From an uncultured bacterium (GTDB lineage Bacteria > Krumholzibacteriota > Krumholzibacteriia > WVZY01 > JAKEHA01), in NCBI GenBank assembly GCA_964588695.1, contig CAZPQK010000006.1, positions 196,239-260,238 on the forward strand: a stretch of 64,000 bases of DNA, given 5' to 3'. The first letter of the stretch is position 1; each line of letters starts with the position of its first letter. The notes under the pieces are model-generated. The model saw only the letters and a program-made list of their open reading frames with translations. It did no database searches and was not told the origin of the DNA. Positions 1,022 to 64,000 of this stretch are shown here, in pieces. A program made the position numbers and the translations under genes.

Positions 1022-2095
1022 ACATTGGATAGGATCAGCCCACAGAGACGTAGAGCTCTTATGTCTAGTATTAGGAGCTCTGTGGCCCGTTTCACTCGGC
1101 AACGTGCGCTCGCGCCAGACAGCGGTGGCAATGACCTTGCCGTCCTTGTTTCGCGTAGGGAACAGCCACTCCGTGCCGGGGTAGGCTTGGTCCCCAATCG
1201 CTAGTGATTCCCGAACAAGCGCAACCATGTATTCCGACAACGGCAAGTCGAACGGTTCGCCGCGCTTCATTTTCGGGATCGATATCGCCTGGTCGTCCAG
1301 ATGGAGCCATTCGCGCCGGAGGGAGACGAGCGTGCCCGGGCGGAGGCCGCTGAACAGGCCCAGCGTGTGCATGACGCGGCGTAGGGGATTGGGCAACGCC
1401 TGGACCTTTGCGTACCACTCGGGCAGTTCGTCGGGCAGCAGGACGCGCCCGGCCGAGCGGACCTTGTTGAACGTCACGGCCTGGACGGGATTGCCAGGCA
1501 GCGCGTCCGGGTCGTCAACCACGCGCAACGCAAGGTTGTATGCGGCGCGGAACAGGCGCATGGTGTTATTGGCGACAGCCTTGCCGTGACGCGTTGATAT
1601 CGTGCGGTGTTTCTCCCGCGCCATCGTGCGGGTAACTTCCGGTATCGGCAGCGTCTTCCAGTGCCGCAGGTAGCGGTCGACCTGCTTGAACATGTCGTCG
1701 ATTGTCCGGTCCGCGCACTCGCGTGCACGCAGGTCGTTACCGTATTCCTCGAACATCTGCTCGACCGACCACGCTTCCGCACCCGACGCACGTGCAGTCG
1801 CGTTCGGGTCGATGCCGCGGCGAATTTCGTTGAGCACTTCGGTTGCCTTTATGCGCGCTTCGTATAGCTTGAGATCGTCCGTGGTGCCCAGCGTGCGGCG
1901 CACCGTCTTGACCTTGCGCCGTCGGCCGTATTCGCCGACCCACAGGTCGCGCTGCACCTTGTACGACTTCGTGTGTTTGTGTACGGCGATCATCAAGCCG
2001 CGCACTTCCGTGTCGCGTACGACAATCGGTTTGCCGTCGTAAACAAGACGGCGAATGAATGCTTCGGTGAGTTTCGTTGGTGGCATGCGTAGCAC
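1013..2095 (-). CDS. Tyrosine recombinase/integrase (P4-like, N-terminal arm-binding domain); appears 3'-truncated
   Basis: N-terminus (LTEAFIRRLVYDGKPIVVRDTEVRGLMIAV) is typical of the DUF4102/P4-integrase arm domain. LRPGT (box I arginine) is present. The ORF ends at ...RHKSSTSLWADPIQ, just after the degenerate H-x-x-R region and before the expected LLGH...Y catalytic tyrosine segment. The stop codon abuts the C-box region. Confidence 0.7.
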   Translation of the reverse strand: MLRMPPTKLTEAFIRRLVYDGKPIVVRDTEVRGLMIAVHKHTKSYKVQRDLWVGEYGRRRKVKTVRRTLGTTDDLKLYEARIKATEVLNEIRRGIDPNATARASGAEAWSVEQMFEEYGNDLRARECADRTIDDMFKQVDRYLRHWKTLPIPEVTRTMAREKHRTISTRHGKAVANNTMRLFRAAYNLALRVVDDPDALPGNPVQAVTFNKVRSAGRVLLPDELPEWYAKVQALPNPLRRVMHTLGLFSGLRPGTLVSLRREWLHLDDQAISIPKMKRGEPFDLPLSEYMVALVRESLAIGDQAYPGTEWLFPTRNKDGKVIATAVWRERTLPSETGHRAPNTRHKSSTSLWADPIQCDS

Positions 2096-2263
2096 TCCTT
2101 AGCGAACCGTGTTACCTGCACTTGCGAACCGTTTGCGAACCGCGGTACAATGGGTTGCTTGCGGGCTCGTGAGGTAATTATGCTCGTAAGTCCTTGAAAA
2201 ACAAAGACTTTCAAGGGTGCTTAGGGGGCTCCCGGGGGCTTGCGAGGGCTTCTTCTAATCTGC

Positions 2264-2296
2264 AGGTCCCAGGTTCGAATCCTGGCGGGGTCGCCA
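2264..2296 (+). other. tRNA 3'-half remnant (T-stem CCAGG / TTCGAAT / CCTGG, acceptor CGGGGTC-G-CCA); probable att-site copy
   Basis: A perfect T-arm plus 7-nt acceptor strand, discriminator and CCA are present, but no complementary 5' acceptor strand (GACCCCG) or anticodon arm can be found upstream. It is therefore a fragment, as expected for the direct repeat left when an integrase-bearing island inserts into a tRNA 3' end. Confidence 0.5.
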
Positions 2297-2426
2297 TTCT
2301 CCACACTCGCCCATAAACCACACCCAGTTTTCCTCTAGTCGGGAACCAACGGCGTCGTCGCTACGTTACCCATATATTGGCCCGTCTGACCGTCCCTGGT
2401 TCATAACAATAGTTAAGAGGTGTTCG

Positions 2427-3632
2427 ATGAAACGTCGCCACTGGATCAATTGCATCGTCGTGGCAATAGTCGCGGTTGTCGCGGGCAGTACAACCGCATG
2501 TCGCCAGTCCACTGCGGACCAGGCCGATATCGACGCGTTTGCGGCGGCCGTCGGTGATCTGGCCAAAGAAATCGGATTACCGGGTATGTCGGCCGCGATC
2601 GTAAGGGACGGAGAGATGGTTTGGTCGGCCGGGTACGGTCATGCCGATGTCGAGCGGAACATTCTGGCACGCGCGGATACCCCGTACCGACTGGCGTCGC
2701 TTTCCAAGCCGTTCGCCGCGGTTATCCTGATGCAGTTGATGGAAGAGGGACGCGTGGAGCTGGATGGGCCGATGCGTGATTTCGCGGTTCATGCTTGGTT
2801 TGAACCCGGAGGCGGTTCTTGGGCGCATTATCCGTCTCGCTATGACGACGGCACTATTACCGTCCGACACATTCTGACGCACACCAGTCAGTCGGAGCCG
2901 CCTGGGTCGGCTTATGCTTACAGTGGAAACATCTTCGGCGACCTCACGTGGGTGATCGAAGACGCAGCGGGTCAGTCGTATCCCGTTGCCGTCCGCGATC
3001 GGATCCTCAAGCCGTTGCAAATGAACCGCTCGTGTCCGGGGCAGCTTGCGCCGTGGTGCGATGAAGTTGTCGGTGCACTCGCAAAACCTTACGACATTTC
3101 AAACGACTCATTGGTGGCAGGTACCTACCCCGGTTTCGGAGTCGATTCCGACGCTGACGTCACTGCCTGGGGGCTTGACCCGGCCTATCGACTGCCCGCT
3201 ACCACCCAGGACGCTCGGCGGAAAAGGCTTGGGAGTTCGTTTACGAGATTGTTCTCGTCGCAGTCGGCCGCGGGGATGATCTCGTCAGTTGAGGACCTGG
3301 CCAAGTTTGACATCGCGCTCGACGGAAACCGACTTGTGTCCAAGCAAAGTCGCGAACTGATGTTTACTGCAGCGCGCACACCGGATGGCGACGAGTTGCC
3401 GTACGGTCTCGGATGGTTCGTGGAGGACAACGACGGGACGAAGTTGGTCTGGCACTACGGCTGGTATCCGCCGACAGTTTCTGCACTCTACATAAAGGTC
3501 CCGTCGCGGCGCCTGTCGCTGATTCTGCTGTCCAACTGCGACGGGCTAAGCGCCGGGGTGTCCTGGTCGGCGCTCGGCGTCAAAGCCTCGCCGTTTGCGC
3601 GGCTCTTCCTGGAGCACTTCGCGGGCAACTAA
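2427..3632 (+). CDS. Serine hydrolase, beta-lactamase (class C / PBP4-like) fold, probable lipoprotein
   Basis: S-x-x-K motif (SLSKPF) follows AYRLASLSKPFAA. N-terminal signal peptide ends near ...VAGSTTAC. A GGAG-like RBS (AAGAGG) precedes the ATG. Confidence 0.8.
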   Translation: MKRRHWINCIVVAIVAVVAGSTTACRQSTADQADIDAFAAAVGDLAKEIGLPGMSAAIVRDGEMVWSAGYGHADVERNILARADTPYRLASLSKPFAAVILMQLMEEGRVELDGPMRDFAVHAWFEPGGGSWAHYPSRYDDGTITVRHILTHTSQSEPPGSAYAYSGNIFGDLTWVIEDAAGQSYPVAVRDRILKPLQMNRSCPGQLAPWCDEVVGALAKPYDISNDSLVAGTYPGFGVDSDADVTAWGLDPAYRLPATTQDARRKRLGSSFTRLFSSQSAAGMISSVEDLAKFDIALDGNRLVSKQSRELMFTAARTPDGDELPYGLGWFVEDNDGTKLVWHYGWYPPTVSALYIKVPSRRLSLILLSNCDGLSAGVSWSALGVKASPFARLFLEHFAGN

Positions 3633-3704
3633 GGGCAGGCAGGCCCTCGGCGCCTGTCGCGTTTGTGATCCGTCGATAAAAATTCTTGGAACCTCCCGGC
3701 GGTG

Positions 3705-3725
3705 ATAGTTGTATCATACAACTAT
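3705..3725. promoter_or_regulatory. Perfect 10-bp inverted repeat ATAGTTGTAT-c-ATACAACTAT, candidate MarR operator
   Basis: The palindrome sits 12 bp upstream of the marR start codon and overlaps the likely promoter/RBS region. MarR-family dimers bind such dyads. Confidence 0.55.
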
Positions 3726-3736
3726 CAGGAGGAGCC

Positions 3737-4231
3737 ATGTCCGCACGAACCACCGATATCGATCTCGACCGCGACGCGGAAGAACTTCACGCCGCCGTCC
3801 GAAGCTTGCTGCGCATCTACCAATTCCGCGACCGGCAGCGGACCTGCTACCACGACATCTCGGTTACCCAATGCTACGCGCTAGAGGCCCTGCAGGGTGG
3901 CGCGTTGCGGTTACTGGAGATTGCCGAGGCGCTGAATCTGGAGAAAAGTTCGGCAAGTCGAATGATCGACTCGCTGGAGGACAAGGGGTATGTGCGCCGG
4001 GCGGCCGATCCCAGCGACGGGCGCGCGAGTGTCATCGACATTACGCGGCGCGGGCAGGCGCTTCACGACAACATTGTGGCCGCGCTGGTTGACGAAAAGC
4101 GCGAACTACTCGCCGGGGTCGGCAAGGCGTCGCGACGGGCGGCGATTCGAATTATCAACGAACTATCGCGCTCCGCTGCGGAGCGTTTTAGCGACGAGTG
4201 TGCGCTCACCGAATTCAAAGAAGGACGCTAG
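3737..4231 (+). CDS. MarR-family transcriptional regulator
   Basis: Winged-helix region (TQCYALEALQGG...LAEALNLEKSSASRMIDSLEDKGYVRR..DPSDGRASVIDITRRG) is the MarR signature. Start is chosen at the ATG preceded by AGGAGG (3724-3729). A longer upstream ORF lacks an RBS. Confidence 0.85.
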   Translation: MSARTTDIDLDRDAEELHAAVRSLLRIYQFRDRQRTCYHDISVTQCYALEALQGGALRLLEIAEALNLEKSSASRMIDSLEDKGYVRRAADPSDGRASVIDITRRGQALHDNIVAALVDEKRELLAGVGKASRRAAIRIINELSRSAAERFSDECALTEFKEGR

Positions 4232-54332: not shown

Positions 54333-54938
54333 CTATTGGAAAGCGTACCCGAACGTAACGGTAAATGTGGGAACTGTCGCGCCGTCGCGCTCGTCGCCAC
54401 CTGAAATGAAGAACGTTGGAACTTGCGCGCGGATGTCGGCGCGCTCGTTAAGCCGTTTGCCAATCCCAAAGTTAATGACCAGCCCGCCGACGGTCCCGTC
54501 TTCGGACTGCGAACTACCGCCATTGGCAAGCGGTGTTCCCAACGAGGTGTCGGTGTCGCTCTGCTCTTCCCACGAAACTGAAATGGCGCCAACGCCTACA
54601 CCAGTCACAAAGTACGGGCCGCCGCTCTCTTTGTTGTAACCGAAGAGGTAGTTGGCGATCGCGCCGACCACAAACACGTCTGTGGTTTCGGTATAAGTGT
54701 TAGCGCCGTTGTCGGACTCTTCTTCAAAAGAACCGCCGAACAGCATGATCCCCATCTCAAACGCGTTCACTCCCTGGAACTGGGTGTAATCGAGTTGCGC
54801 GCCGAACGCGATACCGCCGGTTATGTCGGTACCGATTCCGACCCGGCCTCCGACTCGACCGGTTTGCTCTTGGGCTACCGCAACATCGACGATCGAGACG
54901 GCTAGCACACACGCGGCGATTAGTCCGAATTTGTACAT
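54333..54938 (-). CDS. Small outer-membrane beta-barrel protein (OmpA-like/OmpW-like barrel)
   Basis: AGGAGG RBS. Signal peptide MYKFGLIAACVLAVSIVDVAVA. Gly-rich alternating strands with C-terminal ...FGYAFQ. Confidence 0.6.
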   Translation of the reverse strand: MYKFGLIAACVLAVSIVDVAVAQEQTGRVGGRVGIGTDITGGIAFGAQLDYTQFQGVNAFEMGIMLFGGSFEEESDNGANTYTETTDVFVVGAIANYLFGYNKESGGPYFVTGVGVGAISVSWEEQSDTDTSLGTPLANGGSSQSEDGTVGGLVINFGIGKRLNERADIRAQVPTFFISGGDERDGATVPTFTVTFGYAFQ

Positions 54939-54979
54939 TGTAGGTCTCCTCCTGGGTTGGCTGTTGTTACCAATACATA

Positions 54980-55786
54980 TCATCGGCGATAAAGTTGGGG
55001 TGCCTGGCGAAACAGGATCGCCCGGGTGTTGGCATCCGGGCTTAGCGGTCGGTTAAACGGCCGCGCTTCGTGGTTTGGCTGAAGCTGGTATGGGGCTAGC
55101 GCATCGCAGATGGCGATTGGGTCTACCCCCAACGCGGGGTGGACATCTAACAAAAGCGCGTTGATGCCGCGCGACAATGTCGCCATCGCGCCGTTGATAA
55201 CTTGCGCTTCCGCGCCTTCAACGTCGATTTTGATTACGTCGGCGCGTCCGTCGGTGTGCTCGGCAAGCAATGTGTCCATCGTTATAGTCTTTACGTTTAA
55301 CCGATCACCAGAACTACGCGCGTCGGTGGCCAGGCTGTGCCATCCACTCTTCTTGCCCAGGTGCAAGGTCGCAGTTCCGTCGCGGTCGCTGAGCGCGGCT
55401 TGTACCAGGCGAACGTTACGGCAGCCGTTGGATTCCAGACTTTGTTGAATCCACTTGCAGTTTTCCGGCTCGGGTTCGACCGCGATGACTTTGCCCTCTT
55501 TGCCCACCAGGCCAGATGCCAACAGCGAAAAGTCTCCCTTGTTGGCTCCCACGTCCACGAACACGTCGCCGGGATTAAGCAGGTGTTTCAGCGCGGCTTG
55601 CTTGCTGCGTTCGAATCGGCCAAACGCGCGCCACAACATCATTTCGGATTCGGTGACGTCCAGGTAGATGTGGCCGTAGGGGGCGTGGTAGCGGCGGTGG
55701 CCGCTCGGGTAGAGCTTTGACCACAGCGGGTAGGTCCACACCAGGGCGCGGAACCGGGCACCTTTTAATGTCTTGCGGGAGGCCAT
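54980..55786 (-). CDS. FkbM-family SAM-dependent methyltransferase
   Basis: VFVDVGANKGDFS motif. Confidence 0.7.
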   Translation of the reverse strand: MASRKTLKGARFRALVWTYPLWSKLYPSGHRRYHAPYGHIYLDVTESEMMLWRAFGRFERSKQAALKHLLNPGDVFVDVGANKGDFSLLASGLVGKEGKVIAVEPEPENCKWIQQSLESNGCRNVRLVQAALSDRDGTATLHLGKKSGWHSLATDARSSGDRLNVKTITMDTLLAEHTDGRADVIKIDVEGAEAQVINGAMATLSRGINALLLDVHPALGVDPIAICDALAPYQLQPNHEARPFNRPLSPDANTRAILFRQAPQLYRR

Positions 55787-55872
55787 GGCGGCAGGATAGC
55801 AGAAGCTACCGGCCAGCAGGGAATTTGTTAACCTATCAAAAGTGATGTAATATTTATAGCTGGCGGGTATTG

Positions 55873-55893
55873 GGCATCATAATTGATATGTTA
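55873..55893. promoter_or_regulatory. Direct repeat 1 GGCATCATAATTGATATGTTA in the AT-rich hipBA promoter region
   Basis: 19/21 identical to the second copy 44 bp downstream. Contains an internal ATCA-N4-TGAT dyad. Confidence 0.4.
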
Positions 55894-55916
55894 TCCGTTA
55901 TTTCTAGTTGTGTTAA

Positions 55917-55937
55917 GGCATCATAACTGATATATTA
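55917..55937. promoter_or_regulatory. Direct repeat 2 GGCATCATAACTGATATATTA
   Basis: Second copy, 30 bp upstream of the hipB start. Confidence 0.4.
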
Positions 55938-55966
55938 AAGCACGTAGGACACCTAGCACATCACTT

Positions 55967-56335
55967 ATGAGGGGATACATGATTACCTCCACAACCAGCG
56001 ATGCTGCCGCCATGGAGACGATTGGGAAGCGACTGGCCCGCTACCGACTAAACCGGAACCTCACCCAAAAGCAGCTGGCGCGCGAGGCCGGCGTGTCGGT
56101 GCCGACGGTCCAACGATTGGAGGCCGGGAACTCCGTGCAACTGGACACATTAATCGGTGTGCTCCGCGCGCTCGACCTGCTGGCCAATCTGGAGGCGATG
56201 GTGCCGGAGCCGCCGGTGAGTCCGCTGCAACAACTCGAGTTGGATGGCAAACGGCGGCAACGCGGAACCGGCAGTCGTGGTCGCAAAGAACAGTCGAAGG
56301 AAGACACCCCGTGGACGTGGGGCGATGAGTCATGA
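55967..56335 (+). CDS. hipB: HipB-like XRE-family HTH antitoxin
   Basis: HTH LTQKQLAREAGVSVPTVQRLEAG. An alternative start at 55979 has a GAGGGG RBS. Overlaps the hipA start by 4 nt. Confidence 0.75.
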   Translation: MRGYMITSTTSDAAAMETIGKRLARYRLNRNLTQKQLAREAGVSVPTVQRLEAGNSVQLDTLIGVLRALDLLANLEAMVPEPPVSPLQQLELDGKRRQRGTGSRGRKEQSKEDTPWTWGDES

Positions 56336-57630
56336 CGGTCGCAAGTGTACGACTTTGGGGGCGCACTATTGGTGCGGTCAGTTGGGATGCTGATCGGCGA
56401 CTGGGCAACTTCGAATACGTGGATGCCTTTCAGCGAAGCGGGATCCAAGTCGCGCCGCTAACAATGCCACTCTCGGACCAGATCTTCTCGTTTCCGGCGT
56501 TGGCTCCGGAGACCTTTCGCGGCTTACCGGGTCTGCTTGCCGACTCGCTCCCCGACAAGTTTGGTAATGCTGTTATCGATGCATGGCTCGCGCGCGAAGG
56601 CAAAGACATCGGCGCGTTTACGCCGGTCGAACGGCTGTGTTACGTGGGAACTCGCGGTATGGGCGCGCTTGAGTTTGAGCCCGCCTTGGGTCCGCCGCGT
56701 GACGACGACGCATTGCTGGAAGTGGCGTCGTTGGTCGAGCTGGCCGGTGAGATTCTCGCCGAGCGCGAAGGGTTGCAAGCATCTTTCGACGAGCCGGATC
56801 GCGAGCAGGCGCTGCGTGATATTCTAAGTGTGGGAACTTCGGCCGGCGGCGCACGCGCCAAGGCTATTATCGCGTGGAACCCCGACACCAACGAGGTTCG
56901 CTCAGGACAGGTAGCAGCGCGCCCGGGTTTTGCCCATTGGTTGTTGAAATTCGACGGAGTGCATGGCGACCGCGACCGCGAACTGGATGTGCCCCGTGGC
57001 TACGGCCAGATCGAGTATGCCTATTACTTGATGGCGAAAGCCGCTGGCGTGGAGATGAGCGAGTGTCGATTGTTAACCGAAGGGAATCGTCGTCACTTTA
57101 TGACTCGCCGCTTCGACCGCACCAAAGGCGGAGAGAAAGTTCACATGCAGACGCTAGGCGCGCTGGCTCATTTCGATTTCAATCGTGCCAATGCCTATGC
57201 CTACGAGCAAGTGTTTCAACTGATGCGACGGCTGTCGCTGCCGGTGGAGCAGATCGAGCAGATGTTTGTGCGAATGGTTTTTAATGTGATCGCGCGCAAT
57301 CAGGACGACCACGTTAAGAACGTAGCGTTTCTTATGGACAAGGCCGGGCGTTGGCGGCTATCGCCAGCTTACGACGTGACGTTTGCCTATAACCCCAACG
57401 GACCATGGACTGCGCAGCACCAGCTGAGTCTTAACGGTAAGCGTGACGACTTTGCCGTGACCGACCTGGAAGCGGTCGCCGACTTTGCCTCACTACGGCG
57501 AGGTTTCGCCCGGGATACGTTGGAGCGGGTTCAAGAGGCGACGGAGCGCTGGCCGGACTTCGCCGACCAGGCGGCGGTGACGTCAAAGTTTCGCGGCGAA
57601 ATCGGAAAGTCAATTCGCCGGCTGGTGTGA
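56332..57630 (+). CDS. hipA: HipA-family serine/threonine kinase toxin
   Basis: HipA N-terminal coupling region (LWGRTIGAVSWD) and C-terminal kinase core (ARNQDDHVKNVAFL...LSPAYDV). Confidence 0.8.
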   Translation: MTVASVRLWGRTIGAVSWDADRRLGNFEYVDAFQRSGIQVAPLTMPLSDQIFSFPALAPETFRGLPGLLADSLPDKFGNAVIDAWLAREGKDIGAFTPVERLCYVGTRGMGALEFEPALGPPRDDDALLEVASLVELAGEILAEREGLQASFDEPDREQALRDILSVGTSAGGARAKAIIAWNPDTNEVRSGQVAARPGFAHWLLKFDGVHGDRDRELDVPRGYGQIEYAYYLMAKAAGVEMSECRLLTEGNRRHFMTRRFDRTKGGEKVHMQTLGALAHFDFNRANAYAYEQVFQLMRRLSLPVEQIEQMFVRMVFNVIARNQDDHVKNVAFLMDKAGRWRLSPAYDVTFAYNPNGPWTAQHQLSLNGKRDDFAVTDLEAVADFASLRRGFARDTLERVQEATERWPDFADQAAVTSKFRGEIGKSIRRLV

Positions 57631-57674
57631 CCGGTATAATCGCCGGGGCCAACGGCTAAGGCGTTGCCAGGCAA

Positions 57675-57707
57675 TCAGATACTCTGTGGGTATCTGACAT
57701 GGTTTTT
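57675..57707 (+). terminator. Hairpin TCAGATAC-tctgtgg-GTATCTGA plus TTTTT after hipA
   Basis: Perfect 8-bp stem with a T5 run 5 nt downstream. Confidence 0.35.
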
Positions 57708-57802
57708 CCGCCAACTTTGAGCTGGCAGTGCTGTACGTATGACTAGCAACATCACTTCGCACACCGGCACAAGCCGGGTACACGCATCACAGGGGGTTTG
57801 TC

Positions 57803-63649: not shown

Positions 63650-64000
63650 GCGCGCACCTGGCCAAATTGCCGTTTGGCTGCGGATTTGCTATATTTCGGC
63701 TAGCTTCAGCGGGCGCCCGGCGCGCCCGTGCATCTGCTTCGAACTGTGGGGGCGATTTGGCTTCGACGGGGGTGAGGGATGCTTAGGCTGCGTGTCGAGC
63801 AATGTCACTGAACTCGTTAATTGCTGTGGCAAAAATGTAAGTGCAGACAACAACGTCGCACTGGCTGCTTAACTAGACAGCCCGTCCCGCATTCTCTGGG
63901 TTTCCAGGGGGGATGTAGGGGCGTCATTTTCTGGGAGCTAGCGTTAGCACGTGTCCGGGTGTAACACGCGAAACTTTTCGGACTGGCCTGTTGCTAATTT

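Follow-up and report, generated by a model that had tools for sequence, protein, structure and literature searches.

What kind of module is the hipB-hipA gene pair found in an uncultured bacterium of the Krumholzibacteriota, and what function is encoded in the AT-rich DNA that precedes it? The pair lies in the 64,000-nucleotide stretch of contig CAZPQK010000006.1 analyzed here (positions 196,239 to 260,238 of the forward strand, hereafter the window), where an initial annotation had recognized a toxin-antitoxin (TA) module behind two 21-bp direct repeats. Our analysis indicates that this is very probably an intact, autoregulated type II hipBA operon of a widespread HipA subfamily, preceded by four 16-bp dyads that would serve as HipB operators. 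The 4-nt overlap annotated between the two genes is present, with the hipB stop and the hipA start sharing the sequence ATGA at 56332-56335, and Pfam domains agree with the assignment of both genes. For hipB, the ATG at 55979 (118 aa) is the most likely start and the ATG at 55967 is less likely, because the gene call on the source contig (118 aa) and the start methionine in a 65-member family alignment agree on the former. The main components of the locus are the following:

55787-55978, no strand assigned: AT-rich divergent intergenic region separating hipB (plus strand) from a minus-strand FkbM methyltransferase gene and carrying all putative operators and candidate promoters

55979-56335, plus strand: hipB, encoding a 118-aa XRE-type helix-turn-helix (HTH) antitoxin/repressor

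56332-57630, plus strand: hipA, encoding a 432-aa HipA-family Ser/Thr kinase toxin, in which an N-terminal Couple_hipA domain precedes the HipA_C kinase core

The drop in GC content reported upstream of hipB was recovered. The 192-bp intergenic region has a GC content of 0.41 overall and of 0.32-0.40 in 100-nt windows between about 55800 and 55980, against a mean of 0.573 for the window, and the lowest-GC 100-mer of the entire 64 kb falls within it. The two 21-bp direct repeats are found at 55873-55893 (GGCATCATAATTGATATGTTA) and 55917-55937 (GGCATCATAACTGATATATTA); as annotated, they are identical at 19 of 21 positions, lie 44 bp apart from start to start and each contain an ATCA-N4-TGAT dyad. 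Both annotated sites are thus present, but they are only the inner two of four dyads in total. These 16-bp dyads follow the pattern nYATCA-N4-TGATRn, and their centres at 55840.5, 55881.5, 55925.5 and 55965.5 are separated by 41 bp (A-B), 44 bp (B-C) and 40 bp (C-D):

55833-55848, plus strand: putative operator dyad A, CTATCA-AAAG-TGATGT, with an exact ATCA-N4-TGAT core at 55835-55846

55874-55889, plus strand: putative operator dyad B, GCATCA-TAAT-TGATAT, within the first 21-bp repeat

55918-55933, plus strand: putative operator dyad C, GCATCA-TAAC-TGATAT, within the second 21-bp repeat

55958-55973, plus strand: putative operator dyad D, ACATCA-CTTA-TGAGGG, whose degenerate right half overlaps the Shine-Dalgarno sequence

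55969-55974, plus strand: Shine-Dalgarno sequence GAGGGG, read from the sequence, 4 nt before the hipB ATG at 55979

Dyad A matches the half-site consensus of the locus at 10 of 12 positions, and the degenerate core of dyad D (ATCACTTATGAg) occupies 55960-55971. A repeat search also identified 55826-55852 as a 27-nt direct repeat of 55911-55937, and 55954-55970 as an inverted copy of the 21-bp repeats. Exact ATCA-N4-TGAT sequences occur four times in the window, versus 0.5 expected, and three of them are clustered within 100 bp in this region, an arrangement that none of 100 whole-window shuffles matched. As a local null, the 192-bp intergenic region was itself shuffled 2000 times with its dinucleotide composition preserved. 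Neither a 19/21 direct repeat nor three copies of ATCAN4TGAT appeared in any of them (0/2000 each), and three copies of any 4-N4-4 dyad appeared in one. The fourth exact copy in the window, at 669-680 (ATCACGTCTGAT), stands alone and is compatible with chance.

We then compared the region with those of related systems. A total of 80 loci encoding HipA relatives with 56-64% identity were fetched, all of which carry a hipB-like gene directly upstream; they span Planctomycetota, Pseudomonadota, Verrucomicrobiota, Myxococcota, Cyanobacteria-related lineages, Actinomycetota and others. A tblastn search with HipB against these loci gave only 2 matches despite evident homologues, and upstream regions were anchored instead with a regular expression for the HTH motif of HipB, which placed 63 of the 80 loci and, with the window, gave a set of 64. 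Autocorrelation over the 210 nt upstream gave a single sharp peak: a 10-mer (with up to 2 mismatches) recurs after exactly 40 bp in 38 of the 64 loci and after 41 bp in 13, with scores of about 5 for other lags. The recurring unit is a 16-bp dyad of the form xxxxCA-N4-TGxxxx. In 44 of the 64 loci, a proximal dyad starts 62-65 nt before the HTH anchor, which corresponds to 10-14 nt before the start codon, and a distal dyad lies 39-41 bp further upstream. Dyads C and D of the window, at offsets of -103 and -63 from the HTH anchor, represent the distal and proximal operators of this family.

The sequence of the dyads also varies together with that of the protein. Within a single locus, the four half-sites agree at 4.31 of 6 positions, a figure that drops to about 1.6 when the register is shifted as a control. 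Half-site positions 5-6 (CA) are near-invariant across the family, and positions 1-4 vary by clade and follow the recognition helix of HipB. The distance between half-sites correlates with the distance between recognition helices (Mantel r = 0.459, reached in 0 of 2000 permutations), with values of 0.15, 0.25 and -0.04 at shifted registers. In loci whose helix carries the residues KR, 107 of 108 half-sites have G at position 3; helices with KN or VN are associated with AC, and the rare helices VP (window), SA (L027) and LT (L001) with AT. The two recognition helices closest to that of the window, in L053 and L027, both go with CATCA half-sites; the most similar one, STPTVQRVE (L053), compares with SVPTVQRLE in the window. 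HipB is predicted to read the dyads because conservation is confined to them, because their position is fixed relative to hipB and because half-sites change with the helix. The comparative evidence that the dyads act as HipB operators is strong, and the function proposed for the repeats in the initial annotation is supported by the dyad-pair architecture of the 44 loci together with this covariation. The best plasmid-borne relative (58.5% identity) was found on the plasmid NZ_CP083567.1 of Sulfitobacter sp. W027 (locus 1170-3778), adjoining an IS6 transposase; a dyad-like repeated pair, GCCACAAGAGGCCATATG and GTCACAAAAGGCCATATG, lies upstream of its hipB gene, whose annotated start is possibly placed too far downstream.

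Arrays of more than two dyads are not restricted to the window. At least one additional upstream dyad matching the consensus of its own locus was detected in 13 of the 44 well-registered loci, with 0.455 extra dyads per locus when the own consensus was used and 0.005 with a foreign consensus. A second pair with a spacing of about 40 bp is present in six loci, namely L001, L011, L013, L027, L041 and the window. Spacings within the arrays are 40/48/41 in L011, 40/46/40 in L013, 41/46/41 in L041 and 40/71/40 in L027, compared with 41/44/40 in the window; the array of L001 falls, like those of L011, L013 and L041, within about 40 / 39-48 / 40 bp. The 21-bp repeats, i.e., dyads B and C, belong to different pairs, the pairs being A-B and C-D. 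A derivation of A-B and C-D from a tandem duplication of an 85-bp promoter-operator unit was considered and rejected, as beyond the dyads and the TGTTAA box the two units resemble each other only weakly (33 of 86 positions).

The HipA protein has the domains and catalytic residues of a Hip kinase. The HipA_C domain was detected at residues 169-407 over the full profile (1-213) with 173.3 bits, against a Pfam cutoff of 30.5 (E = 7.4e-51), and the Couple_hipA domain, fused to the kinase, at residues 5-115 with 68.7 bits against a cutoff of 22.5 (6.6e-19). The initial annotation had named the absence of kinase catalytic residues as an observation that would speak against a HipA toxin. These residues are present: in a profile-to-PDB alignment, D325, H327, K329 and N330 align with D309, H311, K313 and N314 of Escherichia coli HipA, and D348 aligns with the Mg-binding D332; all five residues are invariant in 18 homologues. 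The segment V167-GTSAGGARA-K177, including S170-AGGARA-K177, is also invariant in homologues and resembles the Gly-rich loop S-x-x-G-x-x-x-K (S150-VAGAQE-K157 in E. coli). An AlphaFold model of HipA, in which the kinase core is well modelled and residues 99-175 have a predicted local distance difference test (pLDDT) score below 50, was used for fold-level matching only. With this model (mean pLDDT 59.5), the top 30 Foldseek matches in the PDB were all HipA or HipT (E values from 4.8e-10 to 1e-5, probability 1.00), with template modelling (TM) scores of 0.45-0.5 over the full length and of about 0.7 when normalised to the HipT core. Sequence identity to these solved HipA and HipT structures is 13-18%. 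Among NCBIfam models, the sole match of HipA was the YjjJ model (42.4 bits against a cutoff of 401), and PADLOC gave a weak, partial and sub-threshold match to the candidate defense family PDC-M03A (6.1e-7). Judging from sequence, the protein represents a remote branch of Hip kinases, nearer to Legionella HipT than to E. coli HipA. In a 2021 phylogeny of Hip proteins, experimentally studied members among the hipBA-encoded HipA clades are found only in clade I (PMC8262856), and the portion of Table S1 of that study (Gerdes et al. 2021) available to us contained no sequence with the motifs of this HipBA subfamily.

HipB matches the Pfam HTH_3 (1.3e-11) and HTH_31 (1.6e-9) domains, and its relatives in the PDB include chains deposited as HipB (9u9g, 2.5e-6; 8ezt, 1e-4). 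It remains below the NCBIfam cutoffs for NF007271 (HipB; 21.9 bits against 79) and TIGR03070 (couple_hipB; 42.2 bits against 71.65). The HTH is followed by an S-P motif, a basic linker of the form K-x-R-x-R-A-S and a C-terminal tail W-x-W-G-D-E, whose two tryptophans are conserved in all 65 of the family members aligned. The HipB of E. coli places its C-terminal Trp88 in a pocket of HipA and its tail is a degradation signal for Lon, while a W88A substitution leaves affinity unchanged (PMC3376134; PMC10627512). In HipBST systems, a tryptophan of HipS (Trp65) plugs the kinase (PMC10627512). By analogy, the W-x-W tail is likely a docking element, a degradation signal or both. Residue G60 of the window HipB (118-aa numbering, G64 in the 122-aa form; codon at 56156-56158) is occupied by Arg in 97% of the 65 members.

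Candidate transcription signals were located relative to the dyads:

55825-55853, plus strand: candidate promoter P1, with TTGTTA and TAATAT boxes 17 nt apart and dyad A between them

55910-55938, plus strand: candidate promoter P2, with GTGTTA and TATTAA boxes 17 nt apart (the latter alternatively TATATT, 55931-55936) and dyad C between them

55888-55916, minus strand: promoter-like site, TTAACA, 17-nt spacer, TAACAT, lying between and over dyads B and C and facing the methyltransferase gene

57675-57707, plus strand: terminator-like hairpin, a 10-bp stem followed by CAUGGUUUUU, starting 45 nt past the hipA stop codon

The 27-nt direct repeat ties the P1 arrangement at dyad A to a matching one at dyad C. 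Dyads A, B and C of the window are each followed by a TAnnnT box, and A and C are in addition preceded by TGTTAA; for each candidate promoter, the position of the partner dyad would be near +22. Across the family, a TAnnnT box with the consensus TATAGT abuts the proximal dyad in 28 of the 44 well-registered loci, and in these the start codon comes within about 10-14 nt. This implies a very short family leader, with the Shine-Dalgarno sequence inside the operator, and the promoter elements seem to have been relocated in the window relative to the family. The minus-strand site (55916-55888) is the sole match of a consensus promoter scan, at 9/12 with 0.8 expected by chance. HipB on dyads B and C might also co-repress the divergent methyltransferase gene, because the promoter-like site of that gene covers or lies between these dyads. 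The terminator-like hairpin has a predicted fold of -20.5 kcal/mol (z = -2.83), and an Rfam scan of the region gave nothing meaningful.

Taken together, these elements suggest the following mechanism. An XRE-type HipB dimer most likely binds the four 16-bp dyads upstream of its own gene, which would be arranged as two pairs, A-B and C-D, each spanning about 40 bp, i.e., four helical turns. Because candidate promoter elements and the ribosome-binding site coincide in part with the dyads, occupancy of the dyads would shut off hipBA transcription, and it may touch the divergent methyltransferase promoter as well. Translation of hipA would be coupled to that of hipB through the ATGA. HipB would hold HipA inactive by direct binding, and loss of HipB would free the kinase, which, by analogy with characterized HipA and HipT kinases, could then stop growth through phosphorylation of an essential target, probably an aminoacyl-tRNA synthetase. 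The analysis shows the identity of the two genes, the catalytic residues, the four dyads with their statistics, the conserved 40-bp architecture and the covariation of helix and operator; the binding of HipB, the location of the promoters, the toxicity of HipA and its target, and the function of the tail are inferred.

Several observations weigh against an intact, autoregulated operon or weaken the evidence for it. Literature searches on this HipBA subfamily or on PDB entry 9u9g gave nothing specific, and no binding, transcription or toxicity data were located. The covariation statistics are inflated by the ancestry that the loci have in common, and the operator register was picked by maximising the palindrome score. 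Within the window, the right half of dyad D is degenerate (TGAG instead of TGAT), the sequence beside the proximal dyad is CCTAGC where relatives have the -10-like TATAGT, and P1 and P2 score only 8/12 to the consensus, below the threshold of the promoter scan. On the protein side, the replacement of Arg by Gly in HipB (NLIRVLRAL to TLIGVLRAL) could weaken its function. S170 of HipA corresponds to S150 of E. coli HipA by motif only, since HMM (hidden Markov model) alignments to solved HipA proteins begin at residues 227-233, and the AlphaFold model, with its mean pLDDT of 59.5, is weak in the N-terminal half and in the Gly-rich loop.

Some of these features would be expected if the module were a decaying or inactive remnant, namely the degenerate dyad D, the loss of the family -10 box by the proximal dyad and the HipB Gly in place of an Arg conserved at 97%. 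We consider such decay highly unlikely, as both open reading frames (ORFs) are full length, all checked catalytic and invariant residues of HipA and the W-x-W tail of HipB are intact, three of the four dyads are exact and the ATGA coupling is kept. The repeats could also reflect chance similarity in low-complexity AT-rich DNA, in which a GC content of 0.36-0.41 favours A/T-rich matches; this is effectively refuted by the local shuffles, none of 2000 giving the 19/21 repeat or the three ATCAN4TGAT copies, and by the family-wide peak at 40 bp. The dyads might instead be promoter elements of the divergent FkbM methyltransferase gene, or sites for another regulator of it, rather than HipB sites. 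The intergenic region is common to both genes, the sole promoter-scan match faces the methyltransferase gene and dyad A lies about 50 bp from its ATG. However, in 44 of 64 loci, fetched by HipA similarity from many phyla, dyad pairs keep a fixed distance from hipB, and their half-sites covary with the HipB helix, whereas homologues of the methyltransferase occur in unrelated contexts without hipBA (the nearest is 53% identical, and the two contexts inspected were unrelated polysaccharide clusters lacking hipBA). This explanation therefore appears very improbable, and a co-repression of the divergent gene by HipB is possible and compatible with autoregulation of hipBA.

A different question is what the operon is for. 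The same machinery could be triggered by infection and act in anti-phage abortive infection, rather than in persistence or addiction. The weak PADLOC match to PDC-M03A (6.1e-7) points in this direction, as does a large SIR2_2-domain gene that the contig carries about 6.9 kb past hipA, and defense roles of TA modules have been reviewed (PMC8262856). The PADLOC match is nonetheless weak and partial, no other defense genes are adjacent, the 304 plasmid records carrying relatives fit plasmid stabilisation equally well, and phage matches are only 3 and weak; a defense role is possible but unlikely. The SIR2_2-domain protein is at least 1172 aa long (L081:18234-21299) and is encoded just past window position 64000. 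The hipBA neighbourhood may be a small defense or accessory region, because SIR2-domain proteins are frequent in defense systems. A type II hipBA operon of this subfamily may also differ from E. coli HipBA in one or more respects. The tail could plug the active site or the Gly-rich loop, like Trp65 of HipS; the 40-bp-phased operator pairs could nucleate a higher-order HipA-HipB-DNA assembly; and the kinase target could be other than GltX or TrpS. We regard a departure in at least one of these respects as possible but unlikely.

The genomic context agrees with the module lying between a methyltransferase gene and a type IX secretion system (T9SS) cargo gene, as initially annotated. The upstream neighbour on the minus strand encodes an FkbM-type methyltransferase (Methyltransf_21, 1.3e-21), and the other neighbour an FG-GAP protein in which a T9SS sorting domain, Por_Secre_tail, was detected (3.7e-8). 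At 54980-54983, the methyltransferase gene (54980-55786) shares 4 nt with the start of the next minus-strand ORF. This ORF (54333-54983), located downstream of the methyltransferase gene, encodes a Gly-rich product of 216 aa with a signal-like N-terminus. The 4-nt overlap suggests that the two genes form an operon driven from the shared intergenic region. An 18-nt inverted repeat (55783-55800 and 55998-56015, 16 of 18 positions complementary) flanks the whole AT-rich intergenic region. It contains a perfect 12-mer (CCATGGCGGCAG / CTGCCGCCATGG), for which a rough estimate gives about 0.01 expected by chance. One arm holds the ATG of the methyltransferase gene (minus strand), and the other an internal Met codon of hipB.

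The initial annotation had further interpreted the locus as a compositional island and a horizontally acquired cassette, and neither idea is supported locally. The AT-rich part consists of intergenic promoter/operator DNA only, and the coding sequences have host-typical composition: the GC content at third codon positions (GC3) is 0.66 for hipA and 0.73 for hipB, compared with 0.671 for the window (standard deviation 0.035). Within the locus, no tRNA, integrase or flanking direct repeat was found as an insertion scar, so that neither composition nor scars support an acquired cassette. AT-rich DNA is found upstream of hipB in many related loci too, some of them on GC-rich contigs. The HipBA family as a whole is clearly mobile. 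The subfamily has more than 8000 database matches, relatives are carried on 304 plasmid records (phage matches being only 3 and weak), and the nearest relatives, with about 65% identity, are patchily scattered over phyla.

The hipBA module itself is of a known type; what is added here are the four-site operators and an operator grammar for the whole subfamily, in which 16-bp xxxxCA-N4-TGxxxx dyads are arranged in pairs about 40 bp apart and the outer bases follow two residues of the recognition helix. The recognition code, relating KR, KN and VP/SA/LT to G-N, A-C and A-T at half-site positions 3-4, could be used to reprogram HipB specificity. The grammar offers a simple way of annotating HipB operators in metagenomic data and yields testable predictions on binding and specificity. 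For the window, it provides a clean annotation of the operon, its putative operators, candidate promoters, ribosome-binding site and terminator, and corrects the idea of a foreign island. The grammar and the helix-to-base match are useful and testable, and would not surprise a specialist.

Comparison with characterized Hip systems places this module among them without making it a close copy of any. In E. coli K-12, HipBA is regulated through four TATCC-N8-GGATA operators (PMC3376134), and HipA phosphorylates GltX. The module shares with it the organization of a type II TA operon, a HipB that would act as both repressor and antitoxin, the number of operators, the catalytic Asp/His/Lys/Asn motif with the Mg-binding Asp, and a conserved C-terminal Trp in HipB (PMC3376134). 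The differences are nevertheless marked. HipA of E. coli is matched by phmmer with E = 5e-5 over residues 227-355 only, and fold alignment gives 13-16% identity; both proteins fall below the NCBIfam equivalog cutoffs. HipB here has 118 aa, with a basic linker and W-x-W-G-D-E tail, versus 88 aa ending in a single Trp. As the initial annotation had anticipated, the operators differ from the E. coli consensus: the sites here are nYATCA-N4-TGATRn, with an inner spacer of N4 versus N8, and they are spaced 41/44/40 bp from centre to centre, versus gaps of 10/21/10 bp between 18-bp sites.

By sequence, the closest solved kinase is HipT of Legionella pneumophila (profile E = 1.6e-15 over the core, target-normalised TM score of about 0.7), and the HipB of this species is also a detectable relative of the window HipB (1e-4). 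HipBST systems of L. pneumophila and E. coli O127 consist, however, of three genes, in which the N-terminal subdomain is a separate antitoxin, HipS; the module described here lacks a hipS gene and encodes Couple_hipA and the kinase core in one protein. A paper on hipBA of Acidovorax gave no operator sequence for comparison. The HipAB system of Shewanella oneidensis MR-1 (SO0705/SO0706) has four GTGTA-N6-TACAC operators, the last of them inside hipB (PMC4150777). Like the module described here, it has hipB followed by hipA, a full-length HipA with an N-terminal subdomain, an HTH HipB with a flexible C-terminal tail, and four 16-bp palindromic operators with regular upstream spacing, the last reaching the hipB start. 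Among the Foldseek matches to the HipA model, its HipA structure (4pu4) ranks first (E = 4.8e-10), although the two proteins are only 16-18% identical in structural alignment. The operator sequences are different (nYATCA-N4-TGATRn here versus GTGTA-N6-TACAC), their centres are about 40-44 bp apart here versus 50 bp in Shewanella (16-bp sites with 34 bp between them), and the genes overlap by 4 nt here where a 3-bp gap separates them in Shewanella.

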